64,000 nucleotides of DNA from Psammoneis japonica (GCA_008632985.1 QPGO01000070.1:62001-126000), one strand, 5' to 3'. Positions 3,831 to 64,000 are shown, numbered from the stretch's first letter. Numbers and translations are program-made. Notes: generated by a model from the letters alone, not told the origin.

Positions 3831-4159
3831 AAGGTGCCAACAGCAGCACATTTGTGCAGGTTGGTCACATTCCATTGTTTGGGTTTGCCCGCCTCTGGAT
3901 GGATGAATGCATGAAAACCCAGCGGGTTGACACAGGGTGCATGTTGACAAAATTCTGTGCTGAGCACATTGACAAATCCAGCACCTCACAAATCACAAAA
4001 AAGCAAAAAAGCCCAAATTGTCATGTCACATTTTTTCCCCATTTTTAGCACCTTTTCAAAAATCGAGGACCTTCCTCATTTGGGGGGGTGCAACCTCCCC
4101 TGTTTGTTTCACATGATGTGCTTGTGGAAAGAGCCCAAAACAAGAAACCATGCTTTTGA

Positions 4160-4520
4160 TGAGTGGGACCTTGTGGTGTTGGACAGTGGTGTGGCAGAAC
4201 ACTTTTTTTGATCATGCAATGTGTGGTGCAAATGTTCACTTCTGCTTGTGCTTTTTTGCAAAAGTTGTTTTGCACACTCTGTTTTGCAAAGCCAAAGGAT
4301 TTCTGTTTTGGCTGTCCCGAGAACAAAACCAGGCTGGACATTTTCTTTGACACCTCAAGAAAACACCTGGGTGCACCACAAATGATTTGCTTCATGAGTT
4401 TGTTTGTGATCCCAAAATTGCCTCTTTTGTTTCTGTTGGCAATTGTTGATTTGTTCATCACCTGACAACTTTGCTGCAGAGCTTGAGTGCAGCACTCTGC
4501 AGGCCCAACATCACATGGCC
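4160..4520. mobile_element. Fully decayed copy of MITE family A
   Basis: Matches the interior and right end of the 21607-22005 copy (ctgttttgcaaagccaaagg; aaaattgcctctttt; ctctgcaggcccaacatcacatgg). Termini are eroded. Confidence 0.7.
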
Positions 4521-4874
4521 CTCATTCATTCTAAAAAAAAGACCAGTCTGGTGTCTGAGTCTCTTGCAAGTTTGTTGACCTTGATGTGTCAGACAATCTT
4601 GCAAAGAAACTGGTTGGAAGCCGGGCTGTGCCTCCATTGAGCGCTCAACCAACGACATTTATTGCGCCTCACACTGTCGTGGTTGTTTTTTTGGGGTGCT
4701 GAGCACAGGCCGTGCGGCCTCGAAATGCAGAATTTTTGAAGGTGATGGAAATCTAGAACGGTGATGATTTTCTTTTGAAGTGCTGATAGGTGCTACATAT
4801 TGTAGCTATGTTGCTATATCGACGCTGAGAAGTGGGGTCTACCAGATTCTGCACCTCTCTAGCTGCATATAGTG

Positions 4875-21000: not shown

Positions 21001-22400
21001 CATCGATTTGGTCTCTAAAAACTCTGCAACATCAACAGTCTCTCCTTGCATGGCAGGTGCATTTCTCGGATCTTGTCGACTCGAAACTTGACATTCCATC
21101 CAACTGTGACTTGGTGTAGATTTTTTGACAATGCAGCATGCTTGTGGAGTCTTTGATCCTGAGGTGCTTGGAGTGGGTTGTGTTGGAACAAACCCCCTTG
21201 ACAGACAGACAAAAAACAGTGTTCCATCTTGAGGCATTGCTCGGATTGCGGTTCTCTTCCACTCGGAAATCGACTCCAGCAGAACTGACACGATTTGTTC
21301 CTGTTTGTGGAAGAATTTGCAAAGGCACATTAGTTGAAATTTTCATTTTCTGTGTTTTTGCCTTCTGTGGTGTGCACACACAATGCACTGTGCTTGAAGT
21401 GTGAGCATGAACAAAAGCAGAACAAAGCACGAAAAGTGGAAATTGTGAGTGTAAATTTTGCTCTGTAATTTTTGGATTCTCCGAACAAGTTCTCAATGGC
21501 CCAAAGCTTTTGTGCTGCCGGAGGCATGTGAATGGCAGCAAACTTTTTTTCAGGATTGCCTCACAGACCCCAAGACCCACATGTTGGTGGAAAGCTCTCG
21601 ACGAGCAACGCGTTCCAGCTCTAGAGGTGGGACCTCGCACTGCTGCACTGTGACATCAACAGTTTTTTGGATCGCGTCGCATGTCGCGCACGCACATTTC
21701 TGTGTGTTGCATTCTACGAAATTGTTTCATGCTCCCTGTTTTGCGAAGCCAAAGGCTTTCTATTTTCAACATTCATGAGAATGAAAACACGCTGGGCACA
21801 TTCTTCAATGTCTGAAGAACACACCCGGGCAAACTGTTGATCATGTGCTCCAAGCATGCAGGAGGAGATGCGTTCATAAAATTGCCTCTTTTTCTGTTGG
21901 CGATCATGTGAATTTTCATTGCAGTGTAAATTTACTACAGAGCTCGCACGCAGAATTCTGCGGGCCCAATGTCACATGGAGTCCCACCCAGGACTGGAAC
22001 CCATCGAGCTGAACAAGGTCAAATGCATGTTGCATCGGTCGGAGTGAGCGGAAAGCAAGTGTTTGTCATTGAAAATTTGGCATTTATTTAAGAAAAAACA
22101 ATGGTCACATTTGCCTTTTTCCAATTGATTTTTGTGTTTGTGTTCAGTCATTGCTCGCATCATGAATTTGACATTTAATCCGGAGTTCCGAAATTTTGTT
22201 CAGGATTGCATGCCGCACAAATTGCTTGTGGGACACCTTGTTTCTATGCTTTGCTCTTACTCTGCAGCTCTTACAACTGAAGATGTCGAAAAAAGGCTTT
22301 CGTCAGTCGCTGCAACTGGGTGTGTTTTAGTGACTGACGAAAGCCGATTTTCGACAAGCATTTTTGGTGTCGAGATTTTTCAACGGCAAAAACAACTTCG
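18100..22400. other. TpA/CpG-depleted block 3 (decayed repeats)
   Basis: Same signature; CpG is partly retained from ~19830 onward. Confidence 0.88.
21607..22005. mobile_element. MITE family A, partially mutated copy, 4-bp TSD gagc
   Basis: Ends (a)acgcgttccag...ggtgggac / gtcccacccaggactggaacccatc match 46637-47026; gagc at 21603-21606 and 22006-22009. Confidence 0.85.
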
Positions 22401-30779: not shown

Positions 30780-33000
30780 TCTCTGGCACAATCTACAGTG
30801 TGCAAGCAGAGCCCATGTGTCTTTGGCCTCCTGGCCACTGTGGCCCAGTGGACTGGAGTGCCACACAGTGCTCCACCAGCAAGTCTGATGCTTCCACTGG
30901 TGTGAATGAACTCTGCTGCAACCCCTTGATTCATGGGAGAATTGCCTCAATTGCTCAACTGGTCACAAAGGCTCAATTGTGCACAAAACACAGTCCACAG
31001 ATGATGGTGAAGCAATGACACACCATCTGCTGTGCAGCTCCACTGGATTGCCCTGAGTTGTCACATGCACAAGCATCTCAAGGATCACCTGGAGGAACAC
31101 CCCACTCAAAATGTGAGCTAATCTCCTGAAGCCACAGTGACACAGCAGAGCATTCACACTCTTCAAAGGAATTTGTGGCAGGGCAACAAATCCCATGCTT
31201 TTTTGTGTGTGGGATGGCTTGTTCTGTGCAAGCAAGACACTCATGTCAGCAGCAACAGGGGAGAAATGACACATCTTCTCCAGAATGGCTGTGTGCACTG
31301 AAAACCCCAACACAGATTTCAACATGGGGTGCTGCATTGTTTGGGAGTGCACAGATCAACCACATCTTTCTCCTGCTGTGTCAGCAAAAACTGCAGAGCA
31401 GCAGCTGAATTGTGCCTCCTGTCAGCAGAGGTGCCATGACAGGAGTGAGTGGGGCATCTGAACACCATCCTTGGAACCTCGACATCTCCACTGGCGCCAT
31501 TTCTGTGCAGTGATCAACAGCTCCAGCTCCTTTTTCAGCATGTGCTCGTGATGGGAAGCTTCTTCAGATGAAGTGATGGCATCTCTGAGTGGCCACATGT
31601 TGGAAAGCAGCAGTGGCAACAAAATGCCCAAAGGAAGCATTTGTCAAACCAATGAACTTTTCCCTCCTCACCTCAGCCACACCAGAAACTTGTTTGTGGA
31701 CATCTGCCAAGGGGTGCGCCATTTCCTCTCTGACCACAGTTCCAACCAGGCCTCAGAAACTCATCACACTTCCAGGTGTGTTGTGTCATCATTGCTGTGA
31801 GTTGGTCCATGTGCCACTGAGCCAGCTGCTGCTGTGGCTTGATCTGACTGAAAGACTTGATCAAGCAACCCGCCCATCTGTGTCTTCCAGTCCCTGCATC
31901 TGACTCTCGTCCACCAAAAAGCCCAAGCTGGTGAGCTCTAAGATCTTGACCTTTTCAGGGTGAGCAAGCTTTGCTCTTGCCTCTCGTGTGCTTCTTGTTT
32001 TTTCCAAGCCATCTTATCAATGCAAAAATGCCCTTTGTTGCAGCTGACATCACATGGAGCCTTGGGGTCCAAGTTTGAGGCAAACACTGAGCCATGAGTC
32101 CTCAAACAGGTGAGGTCCCCTCTGCACCATTTTGCATCCTGCAAGAGCAGCTGATGTGGCAAGTGGCTGTCACAGCCCCCCCTCACAACCACCATTGACA
32201 ATGTCTTGAACCCACAAGTGCAAAGCTGCATGTTGGGTCATCTCCTGAACCAAATGTCACACACAAGAAACGTGACTTGACCAAGAGATCTTGCTGTTGT
32301 CAGCAACAGATGTGCCCAACTCACCAAGGAAGCTCTTGGGTGTTGAAGCCCCAGTTTGCCAGGGCTGTGCACACCCTTTCCTTTGCTTTTGATCAACACA
32401 GCTCCCTGTGTGCATCCACCAAGCAAGCCAAAAAATCCAGCACAATCTGCTGGCTGATGCCTTTGCTGATGAGACGGTGTTTCTGCAGCCAATGGGAGAG
32501 CACACAATGCGCTCAATTGTTGCAGAGATTCTTGTTGACACTGCTGGAGTGAGGCTGCAAAAAAGCACAAAAACAATGGCTGACAAGCAACAATGTTCTG
32601 CTTGACCATCTTGAAATCCAACATCATGTGCACTCTTGAAAAGTCTGTTGGGGGGCTCTGCACATTGATGTGTGTTTGTGTGATTCACTTGACTCTCATT
32701 TGTCACCATCTGAACCTGGGCATGTGGACACAGCATGGGGGCTTGTGTGCACTGTGGGGAAATGTGCCACCCGTTCCCAGCACTCTCCACCCCTGCCTGC
32801 TGTGTGATTGTCTCTTTCTCCTGGTGGCACTGCCCCGCGGCCGAGCACCAGTGTGCACCACCACCAGGGAAAAGCAGTGCACTTTTGTGCAGGATGGTTC
32901 ATTTGCACAGGTGCTCCAACAACAGCCAGTTGTGTCACATTGGTTTTAGCTCGCTGCAGAATAGAGAGTGAGGGCATGCGACCAACTGCCAACAATGTTG
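30780..33000. other. TpA/CpG-depleted block 4
   Basis: Near-total loss of both dinucleotides; the ancestral sequence is not identifiable by eye. Confidence 0.9.
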
Positions 33001-38199: not shown

Positions 38200-39450
38200 C
38201 TTCGGCCCTGGCTGCTGTTGCTGCTGGCGTGACCTTGCTCCTTGCTTTGATCGCTGGTCCTCGTCTTCCCAATTCAAAGCCCCAAAGTGAACGTGCTTCG
38301 TGACAACAAATGACAGCGGCCTTTGGATCAGAAACTCCGTTTGGCGTTTGCGTTGTCTTGCCATTGTTTTGGGCTGACCGTGTCCCATGACACCGTGTGA
38401 TTCTCCTCTCTTGAGTCATCATGACTTCACGATTGCATCTGCAAGCAGCAGGCATCAGCAATTGCCTCCAATGATGTCATTGTTGGAGAACACCAGCTTC
38501 TTTTGCTGTCACAATCATTTGCAGCACAGACAAAACTTCGTGTCAGAAACACATGGTCTCAAATGCACCTTAGAACCATGCCTCCACATCACATTTTTCT
38601 CTGCCATGTGACAACAGCTCCTGGCCACACATGGGGGTTGTGGCAGGCTTGGTTGTTGTCAAGAGTGAAGAGAGCGCAACAATTTTGTGTTGCAAGCTGG
38701 AGCTGCTGAAACTCATCTTGTGGTGGAGGGCCGGTCAACCAAGTGACCAAGACCACAACAAAACACCACCAAAATGTGCCATGCACTTGTGGGCACAGCC
38801 CACATGTTGTGCACATCATCATCGCACCAGATGCCAGCAGAGGCCAAGGGTCGGCAACAAAAAACAACAGTGGAAAGTCAAGGCAGATTTTCTCTGTTTG
38901 CAGCAAAATGATGGCTGATTTGACAATTCTGGGATGGCACAGATCAGCCAATCAAGTCAAACCATGAGATCTAAAAAAGCCAAAAACACAGACAGGAGAG
39001 TGCAAAAACAGGAGCACACCACCACAAAATGGGAGAAAAATGGCGTTTTCTCAGCACACTCTGCTGCTGACATGTGCCTCAGGTTGCTGAAACTCTGACC
39101 TCACCCCATGCTGCTGATCATCTGTCAAGAACAACAAGGAGGGAACTCATGGCTGGCCTCATCATCTCTTGTCTGTCTGCACCACTCTGTCCTGCTTCAT
39201 GATGCTGCTGGTGTCCAAAAACCCTTTCTCCCCGGCAGCCTCTCCAGTTGTGCGTGGCACCACACCTCTCCATGTCATCATGGCTGCAAAGAGGGAAAGC
39301 TCACATGTGTCTCTGCTTGCCTTTTGTGGTGAGCTTGATTTTGCATGTGAAGAGAGCACTCGGAGTGCAGAGGGGAGGGGGGGCGTTGTGAAGGGCTTTG
39401 GAGCGTTGTTCGCCCCAACAAAAACTAACTCTTTCTCTCAGACATGAAGT
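38200..39450. other. TpA/CpG-depleted block 5
   Basis: Same signature, with CpG retained at the left margin. Confidence 0.85.
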
Positions 39451-45449: not shown

Positions 45450-47397
45450 TTCATCCGATTTGTCTCCTCCAATGTCTTCCGAAAGACGCGCTCTAGCCCT
45501 CTCCACCCTTGCTCCTTGCTGCACCTTTTCTCTCATCCAGGCGCCGTGCAACACGCAACCTCTAGAGAGAGTGTCATGCCAGCTCGCCTTGAGCTTGCCA
45601 TCTGCACCAGCACTGGGGATGCATTCACAATGACACAAGACTGCATGCTTTTGCATTGCCATTGGTCATGCATGCAGCAAAAGCATGAGCTCGGTGGTGC
45701 AGTGTGATGTGTCCCCTCAATTTTAGGATCCGACCCTTGGCACCCACTCATTTCTGTGAGACCACGTCAAAACAATGCAATGATGGTGCACTGTGCTGAA
45801 GCCCTGATGCATCCTTGGCTTTGTGAGGTGGGATCAGGCAGCAGATCTGTGATCATTGCAACAGGCAGGATCATCCTTGGGCTTGGACATGGATTGATGG
45901 CTTCCTGTGCTTTCTCATGGTTGCTGGACTGTTGGTGATCAGTGATTTGATTGTCTGCTGGGTCAAGCCACTGCCAGTGGTTTGTGGCATCTCTGCACAC
46001 AAGAGGAGGCAAGGGGGCACCTGGGGCAAAAGAAGAGGTCTCCACCTCTTCCTTTTGCCAAGAGTGAACAGTCCAGACTCTCCCAGCTGCGCTGCCAATC
46101 ATGCCCCAGACAACTGGAACAAGAATGTGGGTGGCTGTAAAGTGGGAAGAAAGGGTGCCAACAAAGTGACCAGAGGTGCCTGGGCACAAAAAAGTGGTTC
46201 AGACAAGGCATGCAGCATGCAGCAGGTTTTGTCAAAGCAACTGCAAAACTCAAGTGACCATGTTGTGCTCACAGGGGTGCCCTCTTTTGACTCTGTGCAT
46301 CAAGTCTGTCTGAAAAATGCCAATGTCACAAGCATCCCCAAGGCTCTGCCTCATGTTGTTTCACTCAGAACAGAACAGAATTAGAAGGGGTGCACTTTTC
46401 AGAAACTGCAATGGCAAAATGTGACACACCACAATTGAAAGCTGCTGAGCAAGATGACCCTCTGTGAGAAGCAAGTCAAGAGTGTCACAAATCCCCAAAA
46501 GCACACTGTGAATTTTTTGCCAAAAAGCATGTTGAGTGGAAGCAAGTGTGCAAAAATCTCAGACTCCTTTGGTGGCACAAGCAATGTGAAAGATGTGCCA
46601 ATGTCACAGAGCCAGCAGCCAACCACATGCACACAAGACGCGTTCCAGGTCTAGGTGGGACCTCGCACTACTGAACTGTGACATCGATAGTTTTTTGAGT
46701 CTCGTCGTATGTCGCGCACGTAGATTTCTACGTGATTTTTTCGATATTTTGTGTCATTTTACGGTACACTTATTGAGCGATCCGTCCAACAACTTTTGAC
46801 ATTTTTTGTTACAGCGCGATTCTACAATGTCTTAAGAATCGCGTAGGGCAGGCGAAGTTGCAAAAACGTCGAGTGGTAAGAGGCATAATTGTACCACAAA
46901 CTTGGCCGTTTATTTGATGTTGAAGATAAATATATCCATTAATTAAATTCTCGTACTACGGAGCTCGCACGTAGAATTCTACGGGCCCAATGTCACAAGG
47001 AGTCCCACCTAGGGCTGGAACGCGTCACAAGAGGATGGCCAGGCCAGCCAACAATTTTCAAGCTGCGAGAGCAAAGCCCAACAGCAGCAATCTTCAGCAA
47101 GCATGGGCAAAAGGGCTGGGATGAAACAATCTAGTCACAAGATGAGGCTCATGTGCAATTGTGTTGTGCCAGCTTGTGCACTGCAACCAAAGCCATTGGC
47201 AGAAAGCGAAAACAAGTCAGCACACCAAGCAGCATCTTTGCTGTGACAGTGTCACAAGCAAATCAAGACCCCTCTTGAAAAATGTGTCAACCCCACAGCG
47301 TTTGCTGTGGTGAGATGCATCAAAGTGCAGTGTGCATTTTTGATGCAAAATTGGAGCGGTCAGTTGAGTGTTGAGTCGAGCTGAGGCAGCGAGTGTG
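45450..47397. other. TpA/CpG-depleted block 6, interrupted by a pristine MITE
   Basis: Signature present on both sides of 46637-47026. Confidence 0.88.
46637..47026. mobile_element. MITE family A, pristine 390-bp copy, ~25-bp TIRs, 4-bp TSD acaa
   Basis: gacgcgttccaggtctaggtgggac ... gtcccacctagggctggaacgcgtc; acaa at 46633-46636 and 47027-47030; rich in TpA and CpG. Confidence 0.92.
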
Positions 47398-47965: not shown

Positions 47966-47969
47966 TATA

Positions 47970-49534
47970 GGGTCTCCCGCTGTGAGGATTTTATATATAT
48001 AATTCGACCGTTAACTACTTAGGGAGCGCTTTCATGTGCAAGACTGAAGTACCAAAGTATTGCAAAGAGTACTTTTGTACTGCAGGTTTACTTATTGGCG
48101 ACGGTTTTTGGTGCCGACTGGCAGTCGCGCAATCATTCAAAATTATAAACGGTATATATGATATTTAATTCAAACTTATGATATATATTATATTCATCTC
48201 AGCACCTAAAGCCGTTATTACGATCGAAATTCAAAAACGTTGGTGGGATTGATTCAAATCGACCACGTAGAATTATACATATTGGTATAGTTTAACGGCA
48301 GAATCCTTGTAGTCTACATAGAGACAGTAACGGTTCTACTTACAACCCTTCTACACGATTTTTATACTGACGTACATTTGTGTACATTTTGTACCGAGAA
48401 ATTTTGTTCGACTCCGAACGGTGCGCGGTCGAGTTGATGGCTCATAATTTTTCCGAGCGGCCGATCGACAACCACCGCTCCCTCCGACAATGGCGCTTTT
48501 GGCCGATTTGACCGGTACGACACCGCCTACCGACCCCTACCTTGCTTGCTAGTGTTGCAAACCATTGGGTCGTGCCATGTGAGTGAGCCGCGGCTCTAGA
48601 ATGGGTCAGAATGACTCAAAATGTGGTGAGTTCTGATTCTCGCGGAATCAAGTCTCGTTTTCCCCCGTTCTCGTTCGCAATGGCGCTCACCTTGAACCTC
48701 CTTGTCCCGCATCTTGATGTGTGGGACTCTGAGATGGGGACATCGAAGTCCATGGGTGTGCGCCGTCGCCGTCACCGTTTTTGGCTCCGTCACCGTTCCA
48801 CCATGGTGTGCTGCTTCTGCTCCGGTCCACGCCGTCCTGCCATGGCGCTGCCTCCGTTCTCCAGGCCACTGCCACGACTTTCATGGACTGGACGAGTCAC
48901 TCGATCCCAAGTGCCAACTTTCTGCCATTGCTCGTGCCGATCCACCACCTGCTTTTGTCGTCCTGCTCCGTGGAACCAGCAGACTCTCTTTCATCTGTCG
49001 TTCCTCCCGCCGTTGACGATCCAGGCACCCCAAGTTTTGACCCTGCTGGTGAGTTTCCATTCGTCGTTTGCTCGTTGTTGCTTTGCATTTGTAGAAAGCA
49101 TTCGCAGAAAAGTGTGTTCTCACCTCCTTGTGTTGTTCCATGTCACCGCAGATGTGGTCATTCTGCAGGCGCTGGTGCCATGCTTCTTTGTGCAAAAGTT
49201 TTTGTGCATGCCAATGTCTTCTTGCTTTGTTCTTTTTGTTGAAGACATGGCACTAACTCAAACAGATCTTTTCTCTCTTTTGCGCCCTTGCGGTGTTGTT
49301 GGATTGCTCTCCTTGCGTCTCTCTCCGGCACTTGCATCATTGTCGGTCTCTTCGCTCGTGCTTTGCTCGCGTCGTCTCTTCTCCACGCTCGTTTCCCTTA
49401 ATTTTTGTACGCACGTAATTTCCACACAAATGCCTCATGTGCAGAGTGCCAAAATGCTGCCAAATTGCACAGCAACGGCCGTCAACGGTTTTTAGAATTA
49501 CTTGGGCCCACCCACACTCGAGCAGTGGGAGTCC
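47970..49534. mobile_element. ~1.56-kb non-autonomous insertion (element B) nested in MITE A
   Basis: Imperfect TIRs gggtctcccgctg / cagtgggagtcc; bounded by tata and tgca; interrupts MITE A. Confidence 0.6.
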
Positions 49535-50232
49535 TGCAGTGCGAGGTCCCACCTTCCTAGACCTGGAGCTCGTCTGTGTTTTTGCTGTGGCTGCAGCCAT
49601 TGACACACACCAGCAGGTCATGGCTGGTGGTGGCATGGCACAAAGTTTGTGCTCAAACACACGTGCTCTATTGCCTTGCTCACCAATGCCAGTTTTGTGA
49701 CAATCCTTGAGTTTGTGTGCACTTGCTTTGGAAAAATTGTTGCCCCAACAACAACGCTGCGCACACCACACATCCGTTTCAGGGAACGAGATTGCATTTT
49801 TTCTTTGAGGTGTCTGTCTTCAAGCAAAAAAAGTTGAGTGGAGGACAACATGCACTCATCTGCACTGTCTGGTTGCTGGCAGAAATGGCATGGGCACTCC
49901 CTGCTGCTGGCACAGAAGTTTCAAGTCTTCAGTGGAGAAGTTGGTGTGCACACCTCAGATGAGATTCAGATGTGATTAAAAGGTTTAGTCACATGAGTCG
50001 ACGATTTGGTTACGTTCAAAATTCCAAAATCACACAAGTATGAGAAAAGGATGTGCTGTGCTGTTGTTGAGAGTTTAGATCTTTTTCCTTCGCCCATGGC
50101 ATCGCCGTCTTCTCTCACTTCTTCGTTGCTTCCTCTTATTACAAAGCGTATCCAACATAAACTTTACCATACGTAACAATATCAAGTAAGGAAGAAAAGC
50201 TTCCGCAAATCGCTCAAGTTTGAATACAGTAG

Positions 50233-50994
50233 ATGAAGAGTCTCGAGTACGAGTACACGAGCGTGAAGCCATCATCATCAAGCAATGATGGACCGCGTCA
50301 ATATCCTCGGAGAAGGCGTGTATTGATACAGCTCACTAGAAGGCAGCGCCAGCTCTTGTATGTGATTGGTTTGATCCTTGTCGTGTGCATCTTGGTGGTG
50401 ATTCAGAAGCGAAAAGGATCCTCTTCTTCTGCTTCACCCTCGTCGGCACAATCCAAAACCGCGGACAGCAAGAACGACGACAACAACATGGCAACAACAA
50501 CCAATGCTCCCACAGTTATTTCGCCTGCTACGCACAAGCCTGCAAAACCTACTCCGTCACCGAAACCAAAGCCAAAACCATCACAAAAACCGTTTGAATG
50601 CCAGACAGATCGGCTCGGACATGCGACACGATTGGAATCCGGTCATGCCATTTGCAACCACGAGTACATGTTTGGGCTGACCCAGGAGGGCGTATTTCAG
50701 TGGCAAAACACAATAACCAACGAAACCAAGATATTTTACAATGGTATCGCTGGAGACTATTTCGTCATGGATCCAGATGCGTCTTTTAATGTATTCCTTC
50801 GAAATGAAACACGGGTGTGGCGAGAGGAATGCAACAAAAAAGTCAAATTCTATTCCCAATGTCTATCCGGGCCAGTCCTGGACTGTCCCTATCTTCATTT
50901 ACACAAGGATGGAGTTGTTGTACTGAATTGGATTGATGGGGGGTGGAACGAGAGGAATATCAAAAAGGTTTACCCACAATTGTTTGGCAAATAA
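50233..50994 (+). CDS. Type II membrane protein with Pro/Lys stalk and bulb-type-lectin-like C-terminal domain; the intact member of a three-copy family
   Basis: 253-aa ORF with a single TM segment; RLESGHAIC..YMFGLTQEG..YFVMDPDASF..YLHLHKDGVVVL resembles a degenerate B-lectin repeat (inference). Confidence 0.8.
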   Translation: MKSLEYEYTSVKPSSSSNDGPRQYPRRRRVLIQLTRRQRQLLYVIGLILVVCILVVIQKRKGSSSSASPSSAQSKTADSKNDDNNMATTTNAPTVISPATHKPAKPTPSPKPKPKPSQKPFECQTDRLGHATRLESGHAICNHEYMFGLTQEGVFQWQNTITNETKIFYNGIAGDYFVMDPDASFNVFLRNETRVWREECNKKVKFYSQCLSGPVLDCPYLHLHKDGVVVLNWIDGGWNERNIKKVYPQLFGK

Positions 50995-51792
50995 TGGTTA
51001 AAATGTGGCACCGTGTGTGTGTGCTGTCGGCGAGCAATCGCGAACAGATTGTAGCAACCATGGTCGACCTAAAAAATCATGATCAAAATGAGTTTACCCC
51101 GAATATCCCTTTTCTGTTTTAAAAACTATCATGACGGACGATCCCAATGCTGTGAAAAGGCATTGTCCTTGTTCGTTGGTGATGCGTTCCTTGCCTGAAA
51201 ATAGTATGGATAACCTGCCGCGTTTCTCTTGTGTTGGGTTTAGAGTAAACCTAGAGTAGGATTGTCACGTCCCTTTGCCTCGCCACGAGAAATATGCCAA
51301 CGCCTCTGTACTTCTAGAAAAGAAGATAAAAAGAGGTATAGCTTGGATACCGAAAGGCAGGGTTTATTATCAACTGTGCGTTCGTCGTTTTATGAGGCTA
51401 ACGTAGCGATTGAAGATAGTGTGGAACGCGTCTTTCACGAGGGCGATGCACCTGATGCATCTGCTGTAGTGGTTGCTCCGTCCCAAATAGACCTGTGGCA
51501 CCGGTTCCAGAACAGTCGCCAACGACGCAAGCGGAGTGATGGAAACGCTCAAACATGAAGTAAAAGAAAAGTAATGGCACAACGGATGACATTATACTGT
51601 AGGGAAGCACATGACCTCGATTGTTAAATAATAGTTTTGAAAGAAGTGATACCACGTTCTTTGTTCTTTTGAGGCGGAAACGACGAATGTTCAGACTCGT
51701 GGACTTTTGGAAGAAGACCGGTGAAGCAATGCCTGCGGGACGCCAGCACATAATGTTAATGGCGCAATTAACTAGATAGAAAGACTCTCTAG

Positions 51793-52780: not shown

Positions 52781-55700
52781 AGTGGCACGTTGTACGATGC
52801 TTTGTGGTTGTGGTTGGCTCGCGTTTTTATGATGGTGGCTTCGCGTTGCAAACGACGGCGCGGCCGCTGGGCGGGGATAATTTTTTGTCATCTATGCCCC
52901 ACTCAGAAAGCAACGACCAATGACCATGGCATTTTCTCGCAACTTGAGGTTTCGTTGTTCCACACAGTGGCTGCTGCCTGCAGTTGGATGCACCTGGAAA
53001 GAGCAGATTGAGTTTTCATAAAGTCTCTGGGTTGTCAGTCACATTTCTGAAAAAGAGTGATGTTCTCTCTGTGTCCTTTGCAAGTTTTTGCATGCCGGTG
53101 TGTTTGAAAAACCTCGGCAGCGATGGTGAGCACCCAGCAGAGCTTGGAGCAGAAGCGGGAGCTCGCCCTTGGTGCAAGCTGCCGGCCAGAAAAATGAGAA
53201 AATGGGTGTGTTTGTGGAGGGCTGTTGAGCCAGAGCTGCCACCCAAAAAGCTTGGTGTGCCTCTCTTTGCCCATCAAACAAGCCTGAAAAGCAAGAGCAA
53301 ACTTGTTTCTGCAGAAAAACCTTGCGCTGCTGCTCTCACACACAGGCTGGGCCTGGGAACAAGGCACTTGCCAAAGAAAGAAGAGCCAGCCCTCACACTT
53401 GCACCTGCTTCCTCTTGCCAGGCTTTGACTTTTTCTCACCTGTTGCTCTTTTAAAAAGCTGGTGTGCTTTGCCAGGCAGGGTTGTGCCTCAGAGCACAGT
53501 GAGAGCCAATGATTCTTGGCGCCACCGCCTCAGCTGGGCTCTGCAACCTCAACAATGCCCCATGACACAGCTGCTGAGTGGCAGCAACAGCTGGCTCACC
53601 AGTGTGTTTGTGTGCAGAGCACAAAAAAGTGCACATCTTTGTTGCCACAGGTTGCCCCATTGTCGCTGGCTGCTTGCCAAGATCATTGTCATTTGTTCAC
53701 CACCCAGCACCTTTTTCTGTGTGCTGCCATTGCACAGCAACTCCAAGAGCTTGGCTGCCTGCAAGTGTCCTCATGCATGGCCTGCCATCTTGACTGCAAG
53801 AGGCACAGGTTCCCAGCCACCACTGCCTCAGCTGCTGGGCTGCAACAACCTCAACAACATGCAACAGCACACAGCTGCCAAGTTGCCACAACAATCAATG
53901 CAAGTTGACACATCCAATGCTTGAAACACACACAAGCACCACACACACTCATTCATTGCTGCTTTGCAGCAGCGGCCAGAAAATGAAGCACAATTTTTCA
54001 CACCTGACTCTGTCAACTTTGTCCAGCAGCAATTCTGTGCAAGCAAGCTGTTCAGCTGCTGCTGCTGCTGCACTGTCCAAAGTGTGGTGTGGTGCATGCC
54101 CACATTTTCAGAGAGCCAGTGGTGGAGCCAGCTGGCAACAAGAAAAAAATGGTGGAGTTGAAGCAAAAACTCACAGCTCATGAAGCAAGGCAACAACAAG
54201 GAGTCCATGCCCAAAATGGGGGCTTGCATGCCACAAACTGGGCAGAAGAATGTCTCCTTGTTGGAAGGTGATGTGCTTCAGCTCTGTCAGGTGAGACCTT
54301 GCACTGCTGGACTTTGATGTGAACTTTTTTGTCACACATTGCATGCATCATGTGCTCACACTGCTGCATGACTTTGGTGGCATTTTGCATCATTTTACAG
54401 TGCAGTTGCTGGGGGCTGTCTGTTCAACAACTTTTGACATCATTTTGCTTGCACTGCACCATTCTCAAACATGTCAAGAGTGGTGCAGAGCAGGCATTTT
54501 TTCAAAAAGCTGCAAGCAATGAGAGGCACAAGTGCACTGCAAACTTGGTTGTTGTTTGCATGCACATCCACTGACTGAAGTTTTTTGCACTGCAGAGCTT
54601 TTGCATGCAGAGTTCTGTGGGCCCATTTCACCTGCAGTGTGGGGCTGGAATGTGCCTGGCAGTGTCTCAGAAACACACAACTGAGCTGCCAGCTCTCATG
54701 TCCACACTCTAGAGACAAAACAAGAGAACAAAATTTCAAAATTGTTTTGAAAAACCAGAGAAGATGGAGCATGGCTGCAGAGCCAACAATGTCAAGTTCC
54801 TTGAGCACACCACAAAAGCAACAGGCAATGGCCCACCACCAGCAGCACAACAAGAGCTGAGTGGATTTTGTGTTGAAACTCATCAGCACCCACATCAAGA
54901 GGACATGTCAACCATTTTCTAATGGACTCTTTGTCCTTGACTGGGTGAAATTTGTGCAGCTTCAAGACAGTTTCACACACATCTTTTCTGTGTCCTTTGA
55001 AGAAACTGGCTGGACATGACCACCCACCAGCTGACAAAGAGACAGCAAGTTGTGGCACCCTCCTTACAACCCCAGATCTGGACAAAAAGTGCTCAGTCAT
55101 GCAGCATGTGGGGCAAGTCAGGCCAATTCTAGTGCACCTTTGCAAAGATTCAGAGCGAGCCTCTCTTTTTTTCTGCTGTTGATCACACCATTTCTTTTTG
55201 AGTGTGCTGTTGACCCACATCCAGGCAACAGAGTCAACAAGAGTTGACAAACACATTGGTGTCATAAAAACAACAGCACAGCTGACAATCTCAATCTGAG
55301 CATCAGTGGGAGAGCATCCAAAAGCAGGTCTCGTTCAGGAAATTCAGGCATGGACTTGCTGGGATCAACTTTCCAGCCTGTTGCACTCACCCTTGAAGAT
55401 GGTTGCTGCAGAACAAGCAGATTTGGTGCCAACCTCCTGCATGAGCACACAACAGCCTGCATCTGGGTTGGCAGAAAGGGCCGCACATTTGACGACACCT
55501 CAGCTTCTGCCAGCATCTGCGGAGCTAAATTGCTCACAAAGATTTGGCATCAAAACACATTGTTCAAACTCTTTCTTGATGCTCACTGAGGTTTGGCACC
55601 AAGCCACATTGTCTCAACTGTTTCTTTGTGAACTTGAGAAGCTTGCCCAACTTTGTGGCATCAGATTTGTGTCTGTGATGACAGAGTTGTGCAAACAGCC

Positions 55701-56194
55701 AATAAGACAGAGAAAAAAATTGGCAACATCTGCCATCATGTGCCAGAACACTGTGTTTTTGAAATGCAGTTATTTGCAGTTGGTGGCTGTGCTCTGAAAG
55801 CTTCTCCATGAGCATCTCTGACAGATCATTCAAACCCCATTTTGCACACTTGGCAAACTTGAAAACAGTGGGTCCACTCACTGCACACACAAGCTGTTCC
55901 AAGTGTGCTGGGGTCTGCTGCACAGGGGCACCAGCAGCAACTTGGAAAATGGCTGAGAGGAGATTGGATGCAGCAGCTCTTGACTCAGGTGAAAAGCAAA
56001 AAGATGTTTCTAAAATGGCTGAGCAACACAAATGATGGAGCAAAGAAGGTGAGGGTCAGTCTGGCAGTGAGACATGCAATCCACCAGCCAGCTCAGCTCA
56101 CTTGCCAAATGCTTGCTTGGCAAGTCAAAACCAAGCCAAACATGTGGGCACAAAGTGCGCACCACCATGTGCATGAGATGACAAATGCTGGCCC

Positions 56195-57140
56195 TGAGGC
56201 CAACCCCAGCCGAGCGAAAAAAGAAAATGAAAAAGAGCCAACCTCAACTCTTTTTTCGTTTTGTCGTTTTGGTGACCCAACCGGCGTGAAAATTAAAAAG
56301 CTAAACATCCGGGTGTCTTGGGCATGCTGATGACAAGCAAAGCGAGAGGCCTCACACGACAATGAAGATGACGACCATGACGGCATTTGAAGTTCTACCT
56401 TATGACAATGAGAACAACACCATTAGAACCTCCATTTTTTTCTTAATCTGTGGGTGCTATTTCTTTTTTTGTTCAGTGCAAATGCAACAGGCTTGTGGGA
56501 TGACTTAAGTGGTTGTCAAGTGGAAAGTTTTTGTGCACTTCTCAGGCCATTTCGAGCCCCCAATCTAAAATCAAACAACACAAGAATAGCACCATTGAAC
56601 AAGTCGCATCTAAATTAGTCAGCATGGTCATTTCTGTGTCATGCAGATCTGCTTTAGGGACCTTGTGTGTCGACTTTCTATGATGCACATCAAAACCGGC
56701 AACATCATTTGAAGACAAAAAAAAGGTCTGTTGTAGAAGAACTGCAACATGCTTCACCAATTCCCTCAAGACACATGTCACATCTACTTCAAATCATCAA
56801 TTGGTGTTACTTCGTCAGTCATGACATTGAAAGAAGTCATCAAAAACAATCACAGACCACCATGGTAACTTGATGATGCCATGCGTGAGGCGAACTTTGG
56901 ATTGCTTTGCTGGTGTCCTACGCAAACCAAGATGCATGTACGAAATGCATGATGGCATGTGGCCCACATCACTCTTTTCTCTTTTTTCATGCTTCTGGGT
57001 TTGTGAAAAAAGAGTTGGACTCTTTTTTCATTTCGGCCGAGTTGAAAAAGAGTCCAGGGTGAAAATCCCGGTAAGTTCGAGCTTTTCGAGCTATTTCGTC
57101 TTTTTCATTTTCTTTTTTCGCTCGGTTGGGGTTGGCCTCA
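56195..57140. mobile_element. ~945-bp non-autonomous TIR element, partially converted
   Basis: ~41-bp TIRs tgaggccaacccca(g/a)ccgagcgaaaaaagaaaatgaaaaaga with one mismatch; no clear TSD; retains more CpG/TpA than its flanks. Confidence 0.8.
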
Positions 57141-58404
57141 CAGCAAGTCTTNAAAGCAGCAGAGCAATTTTGGCAACCACATGCCACACCATTGTCAGAA
57201 TGTGGTGCACCCTAACCACCAGGTTCTCTGTTGCTGCAGTTGAAAAAAAGATCCAACTGCCCAGATCTGCACCCAGCAACTCACCAGCACTTTCCACAAA
57301 GACAGAGAAACCAACCAAGATGAGCTCAGAGACAACACAAGCTCAAGCAAGTTCACTGCAGCACAGCTGAGAGAGTTTGGTTGAGCACAGAGCCAGCAGC
57401 AGACTTGTGGGCTCCAAAGCATGAGATGTGAAAACCAAATCTTGCAACGACGGTGGTTGCTGCCACAAAGCCCACTTGCATCTCCAACTCTTCTTTGGCG
57501 TCGCAAATCACACGGCACAATGGCTCCAATCCTCAAGACCCACAGGCCAGCAAGCCACCCTAAGATGTCACAAAACATGCCAGAGAGATCTCTTCAAAGA
57601 GAACATCTAAAGCCAGAGTCTGGCGCAGATGTGGCAGAGGACAAGCGAACTTTTGCCCTCCAAATGATGGGTGACAGGTGATGAAAAAGCTTGGTTGGAA
57701 CCTGCTCAAAGATTTGGCAGATGTGCTGAGCAGCATGGCAACAAACAACAAGCAGCTGAGTTTGCCCAAAGTGTGTTTGCACTGCAAAGAACCAGCAATG
57801 GACAGAATGACAAGGCCAGGTGTGAAACTCTAAGAGACCAAGCAACAAAAACAGGTTCAAAACAAAACAGATGATCCATTTGAGACTCAACCACACAAAG
57901 CCACCAAAAGCTTGTCATCAAATTTGCAGCCAAAACATGCCAGTCACCAGAGCTCTTGTGTTGTGCTCTCAGCCCCACAGCCTTTGAAGCTGCAAAAGCA
58001 AAAGATTGAACTTTTCAAGGCTCAGGCTGCCAGGGATTTAACAACATGGAAAACCCTTTCTCAAACATTTGTGTGGCCTTGGAGCAAATTAAAGTCCATG
58101 CCATCTCCTCCACCACTTTCAGCAAGAATGAAGGAGCCCACAAAGATCCATGCCACATGTCGGGATCACTGGACACAAATGATCCCTGCAACAAACACAC
58201 CCACTCAAAACAACAGAGCCTCCTTCACTGGCGCCATTGTGCAGGAAGTCAGACTTCCAAGGAGGCAGCAAAACATGAAAAAAACAGGGTGCACAGATGT
58301 GAAATTTTGATGAAGGTTGTCCTTGCCAAGTGGCTTGTCCAACTGAGACCTGACCCAATCCAAAATGTTAAGATCTCCCCCCCTTGCACATCACAGCATC
58401 ACCA

Positions 58405-59250
58405 TCTTCTCTCACTTCTTCTCAGCCCTCTTGTGACAAGGTGTGCCCAACATCAATTTCACCACATGCAACAAACACCAAGCAAAGTGAAGAAAAAGAG
58501 CTTTTCTGAGTCTGAAGTTTGAACATGTGAAGAGTCTCAAGAAATTGTGGACTGGTGCACCAATGTTCTCCTCAGAGAAGGCATGCATTGGCACAATTTG
58601 CCAGTGTGTGGTTGGTTTCATCCTTGTCATGCATGCATTGTGATGGCAACTTAGAGGTGAAAAGCACCCTCTTCTTCTTTGCCCCAGTTGGCCTGATCCA
58701 ATGATGACAACATGGCAGCAACAACAACAACAACAACAACAACAACAACCAAAGCTCCCACACTCAGTTCACCTGCCATCATGCACAAGCCTGCAAGTTG
58801 CGCTGCACCAAAAACTGACCACAAAACAAAAATCTTTTAAATGCCAGACAGATCAACTTGGTCATGTGACACGATTGGAGAGCTTGGCTGCACTGTCAGT
58901 TTTGGCCACAAGCACATGTTTGGAGTCTCACCCAGGACAGCAAACTTCAGTGGCAAAACACACCAATGATGCAAAGGCATTTCACAATGGCACCATGGTG
59001 GGAGACTGTTTTGTCGTGGATCCAGATGCATCCTTTCATTCACATCTTCAGAGCAAAAGATGTGCACAGCAAGAAGAATGTTGCCAAGAAGTCAATCTTC
59101 ATTCTTGGTGTCCATCTGGGCCTGTCCTGGACTGCCCCTGTCTTCATCTGTGCAAGGATGGAGTTGTTTTAGGGCCTTCTGGATTGGATTGATGGGGGGT
59201 GGAATGCAAGGAACATCAAACAGGTTTTCCCACAATTGTTTGGCAAATGA
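58405..59250 (+). pseudogene. Decayed copy A of the 50233 lectin-like gene, including its upstream region
   Basis: Collinear with ~50110-50994; translated remnants FKCQTDQLGHVTRLES, GDCFVVDPDASF, SGPVLDCPCLHLCKDGVV. Confidence 0.93.
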
Positions 59251-61433
59251 AAGTTGCAGCATGGCATTGTGCATGCCTGTTGGCAAGCAACAATCACAAA
59301 CAAGTTGCAGCAACAAGACAAGCAAGATCAAACTGAGCTCAACCAAGAGCACCCCTTTTAATTTTTGGCAATTGTTGCAATGCAAGTTAAGGAAACTGCA
59401 ACATCCACAATGAACATGAAAAGTGCAGTCATTGTTGCCAGCCCAACAACTGCAATGCCATCTGCGACAACTGCTCCATGTGTGCAGAGAGCTGCAAGGA
59501 TTCCAGCACCAATTTTGTGGAGCTGACCCAACATCACCACCAATGGTGCACTTGCCAGTTTCGCCACACCCACAACAAAAAAAAAACACACACACACGCA
59601 AGGCTGAGAAAAAGCACACAAGCAAACTTTGTGCAAAATCCAACATCACACTGTGGCCCTCTTGCCCTGCAAGGAATTGCTTGATTTGTGCAGCCAACAA
59701 GTCTCACAACAAATGGGTTGTTTCCCATTCCACACAATTTGGGCCATGGTTTCCAAATGAATTGCACAAACTGGCAAAAACACCAAACAACACAACTGCT
59801 GCAGAAACACCATGGACAAGTTGTGCACTGTCACGATGGAACTTTGCCATGGGTGGCTTTGGTTTGTCCATTGACCCCATTGCAATTGGGTTGGTTGCCT
59901 TTTCATCCAGCTTGCAGGTGTGTTGTAATGTCAAATCTTGTGCCACTTGCAATTTCTCTTGTGCCATTTTTTCCATGCTTGCCAAAAGTTCCATGGCTTG
60001 TTGTTGTGCCACCTCTTCTGCCAAGACTGTCTTTTGGAGGGCAGCTGTTTTTTGAATTTTGGATGTGTTGTTGTTTTGTGACACAATTTCAACCTCTTGG
60101 CGACAACCCAAAATTAAGTTTTCTAAATTGCCCTGCTTGGCTTGGGCAGCCCACAAAACACTTGGGCCACCACGCAATTGGCCAAATTCTCCATCAAGTC
60201 TCAAGCACATTGCTTCATTTTGTCCATCATGATGACAGATGATTTCAGCACCATTGTGGCCCTTGAAAAGACACTGTTGTTGTCATCATGGTCATTTCAT
60301 TCATTGCATGAGAATGTTCTGGAAAACCTGCCATGTTTCTTGGATGTTGGGGCCACAGCAAAACTGACATTGTCGCACTCCTTTGCCTGGCTGCAGGAAA
60401 ATGTGCTGCCACCTCTGCAACCAGCACAGATGAAAAGATGAAAACATTGTGGTTTGGGGCTCAGATTTGCTGCACAGCAGCCCCACACCACTCTGTCTTG
60501 CTGCACAGAAGTTGAAAAACATGACAGACATGGTGGGATTGTCAGGTGAGGGCCAGAGTCTCTGCCCTGAAGAGCATCTCTGCTGCACAGATTTAACTCA
60601 AGAACAAAGATGGGTGCAAGAGACTCAGGCAGCTGTGCAAGAAAGTGCAAAAGAGCTTGCTGCAGCAATGTCATCCACCACTCAGATGTTGCCCACACTG
60701 TTCTGTGTCAGCAACTCAGCATCACAAACAATGAGGCCAGCGCTGTGTGCCTCAACTAAGAACGCGCCCCACAAACAGGAGAAAACCAAACCAGAGCACA
60801 CCAGCCTCTTCATCACAATGTTGGAAAAAGTCCCTGTCAAAAACAATCACAGCAACAGGCATCAAAGAGTGCAATGTGCCACTTTTGACACAAAGTTGGG
60901 GCCAGTTCAGGGAGTCCAGTCAAGCCACCCATGCCTCTCTTGCTTTGCCACATGATCAAAACTCTCAACCATTGATGCTGGGTCCAGTTGAGGCCAATGG
61001 TGGCATGTCACAAAAATGTTGCACAAGCTTTGTGCTCAAGCACACATGGTTTTTGACCTCGCTCACTGATGGCACCTTTGTGACACTTCTTGAGTTGGCA
61101 GCACTCAGTGCACTTGGGAGAATTTGTCCCTCCCTGTCTGAAAGCTCACAGCCCATTCTTTCAGGGAGGGGGCACTGCTCTGCTCATCACTGAGGCATCT
61201 GTTTTCAAGCAAAAGAAGTCAAGTGAACAATTTGCACTCATCTGCACCATCAACTGCCAGGGACTCAGGATGATGGCATTGTCGCCCCCCCCCCCACTCC
61301 TGACACAGAAGTTTCAAGTCTCAGTCAAGAAGTTGTTCTTCACAACTCAGATGAATGAAAGTTTCAGTTGCAGGAGTCAATGATTTGATGACATGCAACA
61401 TTCCAAAGTTCTGAAAATCCAAAATCAAAAAGG

Positions 61434-62345
61434 TTCTCTCACTTCTTTGTTGCTCCCTCCTCTTGTGACAAAGTGTGCCCAACATCAATTTTGCCATGTG
61501 CAGCAGCTGTCAAACAAGAAGAAAACCTTCCGTGAATTGCTCAAGTTTGAACATGTCACAAAGAGTCTCAAGTGTGAGTTCATGAGTGTGGCACCCCCTC
61601 ATCATCAAGCAATGACAAAGTGTGTCAGCATCCTTGGAGAAGATGCACATTGACGCAACTCACTTGAAGGCAATGCCAGCTCTTGCATGTCATTGGTTTG
61701 ATCCTTGTCATGTGCATCTTGGGGGTGCTTCAGAAGTGAAAAGCATCCTCCTTTTCTTCTGCTTCACCCTCATTGGCCCAGTCAAAAACTGCAGACAGCA
61801 ACAAAAATGAAAAAAAACATGGCAACAACAACAGAAACCAATGCTCCCACAGTCATTTTGCCTGCTGCACAGAAGCTTGCAAAACCCACTCTGTCACCAA
61901 AACCAAAACCCAAGCACCACAAAAACCACTTGAGTGCCAGACGGGCTGGCTTGGCCATGTGACACAAGCAATTGGAATCCTGTCACACCACTTGCAACCA
62001 CAAGCACATGTTTGGACTGACCCAGGATGGTGTGTCTTCCAGCAGGAAAGTGCAGTGGCCAATGAGACAAAAGAAGCGTTTTGCAGTGGTGCCACCAGAG
62101 ACTGTTTTGTCATGGATCCAGGTGCACACTTTGATGCATGTCCACGAAACAAAAAATGAGTGTGGGGAGAGAAGAAGGAAACCAAAAAGTTAAACTCTGT
62201 TCTCAGTGTCTGTCCGGGCTGGTTCTGGACTGTCCCCATTTTCATTTGCACAAGGGTGGTGGAGTTGTTGTGCTGATGAATTGGACTGATGGGGGGTGGA
62301 ACAAGAGGAGTGTCAAAAAGGTTTGCCCGCAATTGTTTGGCAAAC
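61434..62345 (+). pseudogene. Decayed copy B of the 50233 lectin-like gene
   Basis: Remnants CNHKHMFGLTQDG, DCFVMDP, KVKLCSQCLSGLVLDCPHFHLHKG, DGGWNKRSVKKVCPQLFGK; frameshifts. Confidence 0.93.
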
Positions 62346-64000
62346 AAAGGTTGCGCAGCACATTGTGTGTGCCTGCTGCAACATTGGCAAGCAACAAACA
62401 CAAAAAGCACAGCCATTGCTGTTGCCAACCCAACTGCAAGGCCATCCACAACAACTGCCCCATGTGGGGAGAGCCACAAGGATTCCATCACCAACTTTGT
62501 GGAGTTGATGACCCAACACCACCATCGGTGCCCCACTTGCCAGTTTCACAAAACACCTGTGTCACAAAATGCACACACACACACACACACATGCATCAAG
62601 GCTGAGAAAGTGCACACAAGCAAACTCCTGAGAAAAATCCAACACTGCACTGTGGCCTTCAGTCCACAAGGAATTGGTTGTTGTGTGCACAGTCAAGTCT
62701 GCCAACAAATGGGCTGTTTCCCAAACCTTGCCATCTGGCCCATGCTTTCCAAACAAATTGCACAAATTTGCAAAATCACCAAACACAACAACTGCTGCAA
62801 AAACACCAATGACAAGGTTTTGGTTTGTCCATTGATCCCACCACAATCAGGTTGGCACTGATTGCCATTTCATCTAATTTGCAGGCACAATGCAAAATGG
62901 AAACTTGCGCCACATGCAATTTCTACATTGCCATTTTTCCACAATTGCCACCCAACCCCAACACTTGGCCTGGGCTCCCATGTGATTGTCTGATTTCTCC
63001 ATCAAATCTTGAGCACATCATTTTGTTTTATCTTTCATGACAGATGATTGCAGCGCCGTTGTGGCCCTTGAAAAGACATCATCCTTGTTGCCGTTGTTGT
63101 GGTCATTTCACAAAAATGTTCTAGAAAACCTGCCACATTTCTTGAAGATTGAGGCCAGAGCAAAACTGGCATTGTCACATTCCTTTGCATCATCATGAGA
63201 AAATGCACTGCCACCTCGCTCCATGATTGCAAGGAAAAAGATGAAACCATTGTGAGTCAGATGCACCGTGCAGGGGCCACCCTGCTCTCTTTTTCTGCAC
63301 AGAAGTTGAACAACATGATGCACCTTGGGATTGTCAGCTGAGGAGCATGACAAAAGTCTCTGTCCTGAAGTGCATTTCTGGACCCACTGCATGAGCCCAA
63401 TGCAAGAAAAGCAAAGGTGGTTGCAAGATGCTTCATTGTGCAAGAAGGTGCTGCAGCCAGAAAGAGCTTGCGCTGTGGCAACATTGTCGGCTGCTCAGAT
63501 CTTGCCAACATGTTGCTGCCTCAGCAATTGAGCAATGCAAATGACAAGGCAAAGTGCCACAGTTTCCACAACCAAGAAAGTGCCCCCCACACAGGAGAGG
63601 AAACCAAACCAGAGCACACCAGCCTCTTCATCACAACATTGGAAAAAAAAGACCTTCTTCATGAAAAACATGGCAAGATGTGTCAAAGCACAATGTGCCA
63701 CTTTTGACATGAAATCAGGCTGGTTCATGGAGTCTGGTCAAGCCACGCATGCCACTCTTTCTTTGCCACATGATGAAAATTGTCAGCCATCGATGCTGGG
63801 GTGGGGCCAGTTTTGAGGCCGCTCTTGGTGGCGCACTGCAAAGTTGTCGCACAAAGTTGGTGCTCAAGCACACACACTTCTTGACCTCACTCACTGACAG
63901 CACCTTTGTGGCACTTCTTGAGTTGGCACTGTGCTGCATGCTTTGGGCAACTTTGGGAGAAAAAAATTGTTGCCCCCCGTCCGCAAGCTCAGAGCCCACT

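Follow-up and report, generated by a model that had tools for sequence, protein, structure and literature searches.

We analysed a 64,000-nucleotide stretch of the Psammoneis japonica genome (QPGO01000070.1:62001-126000; hereafter the window), focusing on the interval 52960-64000, in which TpA dinucleotides are almost absent. The window is of eukaryotic origin and rich in genes, and its GC content is ~0.47 throughout. A domain scan identified a superfamily 1 (SF1) helicase, WD40 proteins, a class C receptor, an open reading frame (ORF) with a Rer1 domain and a 2-oxoglutarate/Fe(II) (2OG-Fe(II)) oxygenase, and the ORFs of these genes are very long and uninterrupted. The genes of Bigelowiella natans, the protist to which we compare the window below, are intron-rich. 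No RNA families or tRNAs were found in the window. Besides the gene blocks, the window contains blocks depleted in both TpA and CpG, to which we refer as converted; they make up nearly all of the interval under study.

To delimit the two states, we segmented the window with a two-state hidden Markov model (HMM) on TA and CG counts. The converted state covers 23,650 of the 64,000 bases (~37% of the window) and contains 70 TA and 185 CG. The observed-to-expected ratio (O/E) of TpA is 0.53 in gene blocks and 0.04 in converted blocks; that of CpG falls from 0.98 to 0.14, and that of CpA/TpG rises from 1.22 to 1.85, while base composition is the same in both states (A 0.26 versus 0.264). The CpG O/E of 0.98 in gene blocks indicates that the bias is not genome-wide. 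ApT, which the initial annotation described as remaining abundant, is mildly depleted (O/E 0.72 versus 0.93) and has therefore not been left untouched. Counted per 300 bp, TA shows a bimodal distribution, with 0-2 TA in 78 segments, 3-5 in 17 and higher counts in the remainder, and the block borders are sharp.

The converted blocks consist of complex sequence rather than simple repeats: only three tandem repeats, all trivial, were found in 52960-64000. Among 109 ORFs of at least 90 amino acids in converted blocks, Pfam searches recognized no family save for one weak, chance-level match, and none was found at E values up to 0.01 in the ORFs of 52951-56200. A 3,034-base contig derived from reads (~60-fold word depth) spans 53174-56206 and differs from the window at 19 letters, in addition to 7 gaps; this agreement indicates that the letters are real and the block single-copy. 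A second read contig spans 45606-46659, across another converted block, without a single difference from the assembly. Five other contigs from 45000-53172 (3,289 bases in total) carry 0-3 differences each, 4 in all, compared to 19 over 53174-56206, and this higher count may reflect greater polymorphism of the converted block, as reported for the hypermutable region of B. natans. A separate depth run (X2) covered gene blocks only, and its lack of signal at 45000-46615 and 53080-56311 reflects missing cover and does not count as evidence.

The direction of change can be read from six aligned pairs of unconverted and converted copies within the window, ~2.8 kb of alignment in all, obtained by self-BLAST. 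Two pairs match an intact gene to its converted paralogues, one involves the 3' part of the Rer1-domain ORF (Table 1), and the further three are shorter. Across the six pairs, just 1 of 103 TA in the unconverted copy was kept, whereas 43 became TG and 39 became CA. CG was kept at 5 of 120 sites, with 52 changing to TG and 48 to CA. The blocks thus record a TpA-directed A-to-G/T-to-C change that yields TpG or CpA. Flips between CA and TG occurred at 27 of 232 CA sites and 32 of 197 TG sites, consistent with short-lived TA or CG intermediates. The Rer1-domain ORF, read from stop to stop, occupies 4878-5972 on the minus strand; the Rer1 domain comprises residues 11-141 and is followed by more than 200 further residues, and it is these, not the Rer1 domain, that are duplicated and converted at 3094-3833. 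Searched with a trimmed query against a protein collection, this Rer1 returned 4 matches of at most 39% identity.

A multi-copy element for which the window copy can be compared to the sequencing reads provides a second view of polarity. Its 40 listed variant places include 9 at which the window copy, to which the stretch 48601-49300 belongs, has CA or TG where reads show TA, and none with the opposite arrangement of TA in the window and TG or CA in the reads. For CG, the window has TG/CA against CG in the reads at 7 places and the reverse at 6; the remaining 18 are other changes.

Conversion proceeded site by site and on both strands. A tandem duplication of ~3 kb inside the converted region (58396-61100 and 61434-63928, 67-74% identity) includes the gene at 50233-50991 in each unit, in converted form. 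In a three-way alignment, the outcome at ancestral TA was concordant between the two copies at 11 sites and discordant at 11, which shows that sites were resolved independently and that conversion is later than the duplication. Runs tests along the copies were not significant (P=0.83, 0.15 and 0.83), and in most blocks the CA:TG split is close to 50:50. The lack of runs and the CA/TG parity indicate single-site hits on both strands, unlike the bursts produced by repeat-induced point mutation (RIP) or APOBEC enzymes; strand-coordinated bursts of that type were rejected on the negative runs tests. A replication- or transcription-linked strand bias was also considered and rejected, the only asymmetry being a mild CA excess (56.5%) confined to 57151-64000.

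TpA can be lost without CpG. In six segments totalling 3.4 kb, TA O/E is 0.02-0.08 yet CpG O/E remains at 0.51-0.83, and no segment in the reverse state, with CpG lost and TpA kept, was found among 400-bp windows. We conclude that TpA loss came first or occurred independently of CpG loss, which suggests that the two losses are separable processes or follow a set order.

The 70 TA that remain in converted blocks are strongly skewed in context. With Y for a pyrimidine, R for a purine and N for any base, 54 are YTAR, 8 YTAY, 7 RTAR and 1 RTAY, and the YTAR share is similar inside (25/34) and outside (29/36) the interval under study. The skew exceeds three different expectations: the TA contexts of gene blocks (YTAR 496 of 2,970 strand-symmetrised counts, 16.7%; p=1.5e-28), the TG/CA contexts of the converted blocks themselves (YTGR share of TG 22.2%; p=2.2e-22) and a first-order Markov model (34.6%; p=5.6e-13). 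It also holds if the segmentation is based on CpG only (42/53). Compared to gene blocks, TA density is 0.50 for CTAA/TTAG, 0.39 for TTAA and 0.15 for CTAG, while the remaining six classes lie at 0-0.05. The protective context extends outwards: T occupies position -2 of YTAR sites in 61 of 108 strand-symmetrised cases (26.8% expected, p=1e-10), so that the persistent form is about T-Y-T-A-R-A. The initial annotation had noted this concentration, against which an even spread over NTAN contexts would have spoken; the counts bear it out, with an excess that survives composition-based nulls of 17-35%. The individual sites it cited are all present, namely CTCTAGAG (TA at 3008 and 54710), GTTAAA (2604, 8125 and 62191), TTCTAAAA (4532 and 56011) and TTTTAG (4046, 20235 and 59170). 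Residual CpG is skewed as well, with RCGY accounting for 124 and GCGC for 68 of 370 strand-symmetrised counts (GCGC 5% in gene blocks); A-to-G changes at CAY would create such sites, which rationalizes the excess.

Most residual TpA is new rather than spared. Seven residual TA fall within gene-to-converted alignments; one of them (54396) was retained, another is ambiguous, and five lie opposite CA or TG in the gene copy. At three of these five (58652, 58838 and 62191), the other converted copy has CA or TG as well. Residual TpA was therefore mostly created by ordinary C-to-T changes at CpA/TpG, and its strong context skew indicates that removal went on after the original TpA had been lost. Relating TA to its TG and CA sources by hand calculation gives 0.045 for YTAR, 0.0052 for mixed contexts and 0.0008 for RTAY, the latter from a single site. 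C-to-T changes at YCA are about twice as frequent as at RCA. Given that this creation bias is only about twofold, removal at YTAR must be several-fold to tens-of-fold slower than elsewhere.

The alignments allowed us to examine the flank rule independently of the residual sites. The initial annotation had proposed that the A of TAY is hit, so that TAY-to-TGY changes and their complement RTA-to-RCA dominate and YTAR survives. On polarised converted branches, A changed to G at 47 of 260 NAY sites but at only 19 of 357 NAR sites (odds ratio 3.9, p=6e-7); as this comparison involves no TpA, it provides independent support for a preference for a 3' pyrimidine. The A-to-G rate is 0.52 at TAY, which is near the ceiling, 0.29-0.33 at TAR and 0.03-0.26 in other contexts. 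In mixed contexts, the strand predicted by the TAY rule was hit in 31 cases and the other strand in 15 (p=0.026, 95% confidence interval 0.52-0.80): YTAY gave TG 19 times and CA 10 times, and RTAR gave CA 12 times and TG 5 times. The predicted direction is thus ahead, though only moderately so, and the effect of the 3' pyrimidine stands, whereas the proposed motif is incomplete in that the 5' neighbour of the T also matters. A TAY rule read on one strand would predict a direction bias above 31:15, which places the motif nearer to the self-complementary RTAY; a pure one-strand TAY model requires a ratio of ~6 (decay fit) to ~12 (equilibrium, hand calculation), and these rate ratios rest on small counts. 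RTAY is the best description of the motif and reconciles the differing ratios most simply. The proposed survival of YTAR did not hold in its simple form, since 10 of 10 ancestral YTAR sites in the gene copies lost their TA in converted copies and five of the seven aligned residual TA were re-created, not retained. YTAR is slow, not immune. The core claim of the initial annotation, an A:T-to-G:C process that is specific to context and has TpA at its centre, agrees with both the alignments and the residual contexts.

Table 1. Coordinates of converted blocks, retained elements and copies in the window.
Feature	Position	Strand	Basis and content
Converted block	1251..4600		HMM; 7 TA, 20 CG
Converted block	6901..9300		HMM; 9 TA, 22 CG
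Converted block with two small CpG-retaining islands	18101..21450		TA nearly nil, CpG loss partial
Converted block	30801..32950		HMM; 4 TA, 14 CG
Converted block	38401..39350		HMM; 2 TA, 9 CG
Converted block	45601..46600		HMM; 3 TA, 4 CG
Converted block, first part of studied interval	52951..56200		HMM; 12 TA, 18 CG in 3,250 bp
Converted block, second part of studied interval	57151..64000		HMM; 22 TA, 48 CG in 6,850 bp
Unconverted island, 946-bp element inside converted region	56195..57140		22 TA, 28 CG
TpA-lost, CpG-retaining segments	601-1400, 18001-18400, 19701-20300, 20701-21100, 38101-38600, 48601-49300		O/E scan
TA-free, CpG-rich stretch in multi-copy element	48601..49300		2 TA, 40 CG
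Unconverted gene copy, reference for two converted paralogues	50099..51058	+	ORF 50233-50991, no Pfam family
Converted paralogues of 50099-51058	61423-62352; 58396-59314		BLAST, tblastn
Converted copy of 4824-5587 (unconverted, 3' part of Rer1-domain ORF)	3038..3829		BLAST, alignment

The young repeats of the window have stayed unconverted. The element that divides the two converted blocks of the studied interval has 42-bp inverted ends (56195-56236 and 57099-57140, 97.6% identity by self-BLAST) that coincide with the change of state, and its summed read word depth is ~10-20 times that of single-copy DNA. There is one N, at 57152, 12 bases beyond the right end of the element. An unconverted inverted repeat pair (46668-47026 and 47398-47755, 359 bp, 95% identity) has related pieces at 21608-22005; its summed read word depth reaches ~170,000, compared to ~60 for single-copy DNA, and we take it for a small and highly abundant element, probably of foldback or MITE-like (miniature inverted-repeat transposable element) type. 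A decayed, converted relic is found at 54382-54548.

Among the neighbouring genes, two ORFs of 1116 and 1128 amino acids on the plus strand (23788-30463), which overlap at 27077-27138, look like parts of one very large SF1 helicase gene with AAA_11/AAA_12 and UvrD N- and C-terminal domains. The best named relative of this helicase comes from a diatom transcriptome (54% identity). Using a helicase alignment of 13 sequences, we located 80 metagenome loci around helicase relatives; none of the 80 carried a TA-free footprint (no more than 2 TA within 500 bp at an AT content above 40%), although such contigs may under-sample DNA of this kind.

A literature search for TpA-specific hypermutation returned one close precedent, a preprint on B. 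natans (Mettrop et al., bioRxiv 10.64898/2026.01.13.699255). According to its main text, 231 of 302 mutations in mutation-accumulation lines fell into two integrated viral regions; all but one of these were A-to-G/T-to-C, all the GC-biased ones were on TpA, and the hypermutation was seen in only 11 of 15 lines, with de novo mutation at ~1e-7 to 1e-6 per site per generation. The preprint also describes 124 TpA-poor, CpA+TpG-rich clusters in the ~95-Mb genome and proposes an ADAT2-like candidate; the words flank, context, trinucleotide and CpG do not occur in its main text. The window shares with that account the A:T-to-G:C transitions at TpA that yield TpG or CpA, the confinement to discrete regions with a normal state elsewhere, the long-term footprint of TpA depletion with CpA/TpG excess, and an adenine deaminase as the proposed cause. 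At least one hypermutated region of B. natans is described as transcriptionally silent, and the clusters in that genome as enriched in sequence that is unannotated or of transposon or viral origin. In contrast to the B. natans regions as described there, conversion in the window is saturated (TA O/E 0.04), takes up ~37% of the sequence in at least four clusters within 64 kb, and is accompanied by CpG depletion. Its identifiable sources are a host-gene duplicate, the piece beside Rer1 and the relic of a multi-copy element, with no viral genes recognized, as opposed to viral inserts. De novo mutation was shown in B. natans, whereas in the window it is inferred, with indirect support from residual TA that were created anew and are nevertheless skewed in context.

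Two better-known processes each resemble part of the pattern. Like fungal RIP, the process is regional, consists of transitions only, is directed at a dinucleotide and inactivates duplicated or mobile DNA with a strong dinucleotide footprint. However, RIP makes TpA from CpA/TpG, whereas in the window TpA is destroyed and CpA/TpG produced; only some copies are hit, leaving the gene copy and young multi-copy elements intact, and outcomes lack strand coordination. We rejected RIP itself on the basis of the block composition and the unconverted copies that stand beside converted ones. Methyl-CpG decay matches the equal shares of TpG and CpA derived from CpG and the restriction to non-genic blocks, but accounts for only half of the pattern, as TpA was lost faster and can go alone. 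The function of diatom DNMT4 is stated as unknown in PMC9998398, and no link between DNMT4 and RID is relied on here.

Any mechanism has to account for a polarised, flank-dependent and regionally confined substitution pattern in which TpA can be lost without CpG. We assign a probability of roughly 0.5 to a local TpA mutator that would act in such blocks, presumably through enzymatic deamination of adenine, with a slower decay of CpG alongside. Its targets would be discrete, sharply bounded and apparently non-coding stretches such as decayed gene duplicates and transposon relics. There the mutator would change A:T to G:C at TpA, leaving TG or CA depending on the strand hit, while CpG in the same stretches would decay more slowly to TpG/CpA. 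Sites would be hit independently and on either strand, at a speed set by their neighbours: fastest in R-T-A-Y, intermediate with one favourable flank and slowest in Y-T-A-R, above all T-Y-T-A-R-A. Ordinary C-to-T changes would regenerate TpA from CpA/TpG, to be quickly removed again except in YTAR, which would explain why the few remaining TpA are nearly all YTAR. As for the chemistry, the simplest route would be the formation of hypoxanthine from adenine within DNA. A TadA/ADAT2-like enzyme, or another protein with the deaminase fold, might carry this out if directed to silent chromatin, as proposed for B. natans. CpG loss could stem from cytosine methylation, or the same enzyme could cause it as a side activity.

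Among the candidates for this activity, a putative DNA adenine deaminase ranks first. The nearest known enzymes are the tRNA adenosine deaminases TadA and ADAT2-ADAT3, along with engineered adenine base editors; the family is not known to act on duplex chromatin. In tRNA, the target A of TadA and ADAT enzymes follows a U (U33-A34), and the bacterial TadA substrate reads U-A-C-G, in which the 3' C would fit TAY. The window agrees with the requirement for a 5' T, as A-to-G rates at both TAY and TAR exceed those in other contexts, and it favours a 3' pyrimidine, with C and T not separable at these counts. No deaminase domain was found among the window ORFs scanned (at least 90 amino acids in converted blocks, at least 100 in gene blocks), a search that extends to the window only.

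Several points weigh against a deaminase-based mutator. Young repeats in the window are unconverted. The tRNA substrates of eukaryotic ADAT2/3 mostly have a purine after A34. The one ADAT2 shown to edit DNA, that of amphioxus, accepts adenine as well as cytosine as a substrate, but its reported preference is for GAA (adenine) and TCG (cytosine), neither of which corresponds to RTAY (PMC10354150). The size of the flank effect differs between approaches, being roughly 6- to 12-fold when estimated from residual abundance and 2- to 4-fold from direction bias and the NAY/NAR comparison, and part of the YTAR skew is due to creation being biased to YCA. All figures derive from a single 64-kb window with 70 residual sites and from ~2.8 kb of alignments. 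Finally, A-to-G on one strand is not separable by sequence alone from T-to-C on the other, and chemistry directed at thymine fits equally.

This last point underlies the rival that we consider improbable but the most viable of those examined: the T of R-T-A would be modified, for example to 5-hydroxymethyl- or 5-formyluracil by a TET/JBP-type oxygenase, and mispair with G, giving T-to-C. RTAY is self-complementary, which makes the attacked base of the pair ambiguous from sequence, and the pattern is strand-symmetric and site-independent, as such a modification would also produce. Some protists modify T preferentially in TpA. However, T-to-C is not raised at TpC (TC to CC at 12 of 172 sites), and the only 2OG-Fe(II) oxygenase match in the window (43296-44162, PF13640) belongs to a generic family. 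The read contig is unambiguous across the block, which points to fixed substitutions rather than misread modified bases.

A slightly weaker contender dispenses with a dedicated enzyme. The flexible TpA step would open spontaneously, or in connection with repair, in a certain chromatin or replication state, and the flank effect would reflect DNA mechanics. Alternating R-Y-R-Y sequence opens easily and the junction of a T-tract with an A-tract is stiff, which matches both the fastest class (alternating RTAY) and the survivors at junctions of pyrimidine and purine runs (T-Y-T-A-R-A), and the hits are independent and symmetric. This explanation is difficult to reconcile with the sharp borders and bimodal states, or with the extent of TpA destruction, which by hand calculation exceeds re-creation ~20- to several-hundred-fold and surpasses that of CpG (~29-fold). 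In B. natans, the process is on in only 11 of 15 lines, suggesting regulated activity (10.64898/2026.01.13.699255, main text).

It is unlikely that T:G mismatches at methyl-CpG recruit a DNA polymerase eta (Pol eta)-like enzyme that makes A-to-G errors at nearby WA (W, A or T), in analogy to the second phase of antibody somatic hypermutation; an error-prone Pol eta-like polymerase had been among the candidates of the initial annotation. TpA and CpG loss do share blocks, and WA includes TA, but its other half, AA, is not hot: A-to-G rates at AAN (0.05, 0.11, 0.10 and 0.25) are not above those at CAN or GAN, so the expected WA signature is missing. Pol eta produces many transversions, whereas 82 of the 103 TA outcomes are single transitions. 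TpA was lost with CpG kept in the six segments described above, with none in the reverse state, and in B. natans only 1 of 231 mutations was other than A-to-G/T-to-C (10.64898/2026.01.13.699255, main text).

Hyper-editing of double-stranded transcripts by an ADAR-like enzyme, with A-to-I changes subsequently copied into DNA, would affect both strands and meet the 5' U favoured by ADARs (10.64898/2026.01.13.699255, Discussion), yet we regard it as highly improbable. The converted copies are products of tandem duplication at the DNA level, flanking non-coding sequence included (49638-50028 versus 61021-61407), and the element inserted at 56195-57140 has escaped conversion, the change of state falling at its inverted ends. 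A 3' G is preferred by ADARs, whereas the favoured 3' base in the window is a pyrimidine, TAG is among the slowest contexts, and CTAG and TTAG persist. CpG loss would be left unexplained. Least probable of all is an artefact or selection (mis-called modified DNA, simple repeats, or a function selected against TA and CG), a suspicion raised by the extreme composition but contradicted by the 3,034-base match to ~60-fold reads with 19 differences, the mere three trivial tandem repeats, the point-by-point conversion of paralogous genes and the absence of protein families from 109 ORFs bar one chance-level match.

We know of no natural enzyme that deaminates adenine in chromosomal DNA as a defence. 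A more far-reaching form of the deaminase reading, which we put forward tentatively and as possible rather than probable, is that a chromatin-directed DNA adenine deaminase reading approximately R-T-A-Y serves as a 'reverse RIP' defence in at least two unrelated protist lineages; in the organism studied here, it would have rewritten much of the non-coding genome, acting first and being followed by decay of methylated CpG. TpA-specific hypermutation itself has already been described, in the B. natans preprint only, and we read the window as a variant of the same kind. It represents the end state of such a process, in which TpA has been erased almost completely. Beyond the text of the preprint, the window adds a rule for the flanking bases (fast at RTAY, slow at YTAR, with protection by T/A tracts), a temporal order in which TpA is lost before or without CpG, and a range of targets that includes decayed host-gene copies and transposon relics rather than viral inserts alone. 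The flank rule narrows the search for the enzyme, as it provides a fingerprint for testing candidate deaminases and a prediction for existing mutation-accumulation data. If the reading is true, this rule would be the recognition motif of the enzyme and could be checked in the de novo mutations of B. natans, and a natural DNA adenine deaminase with a defined motif would be of interest to base-editing work.

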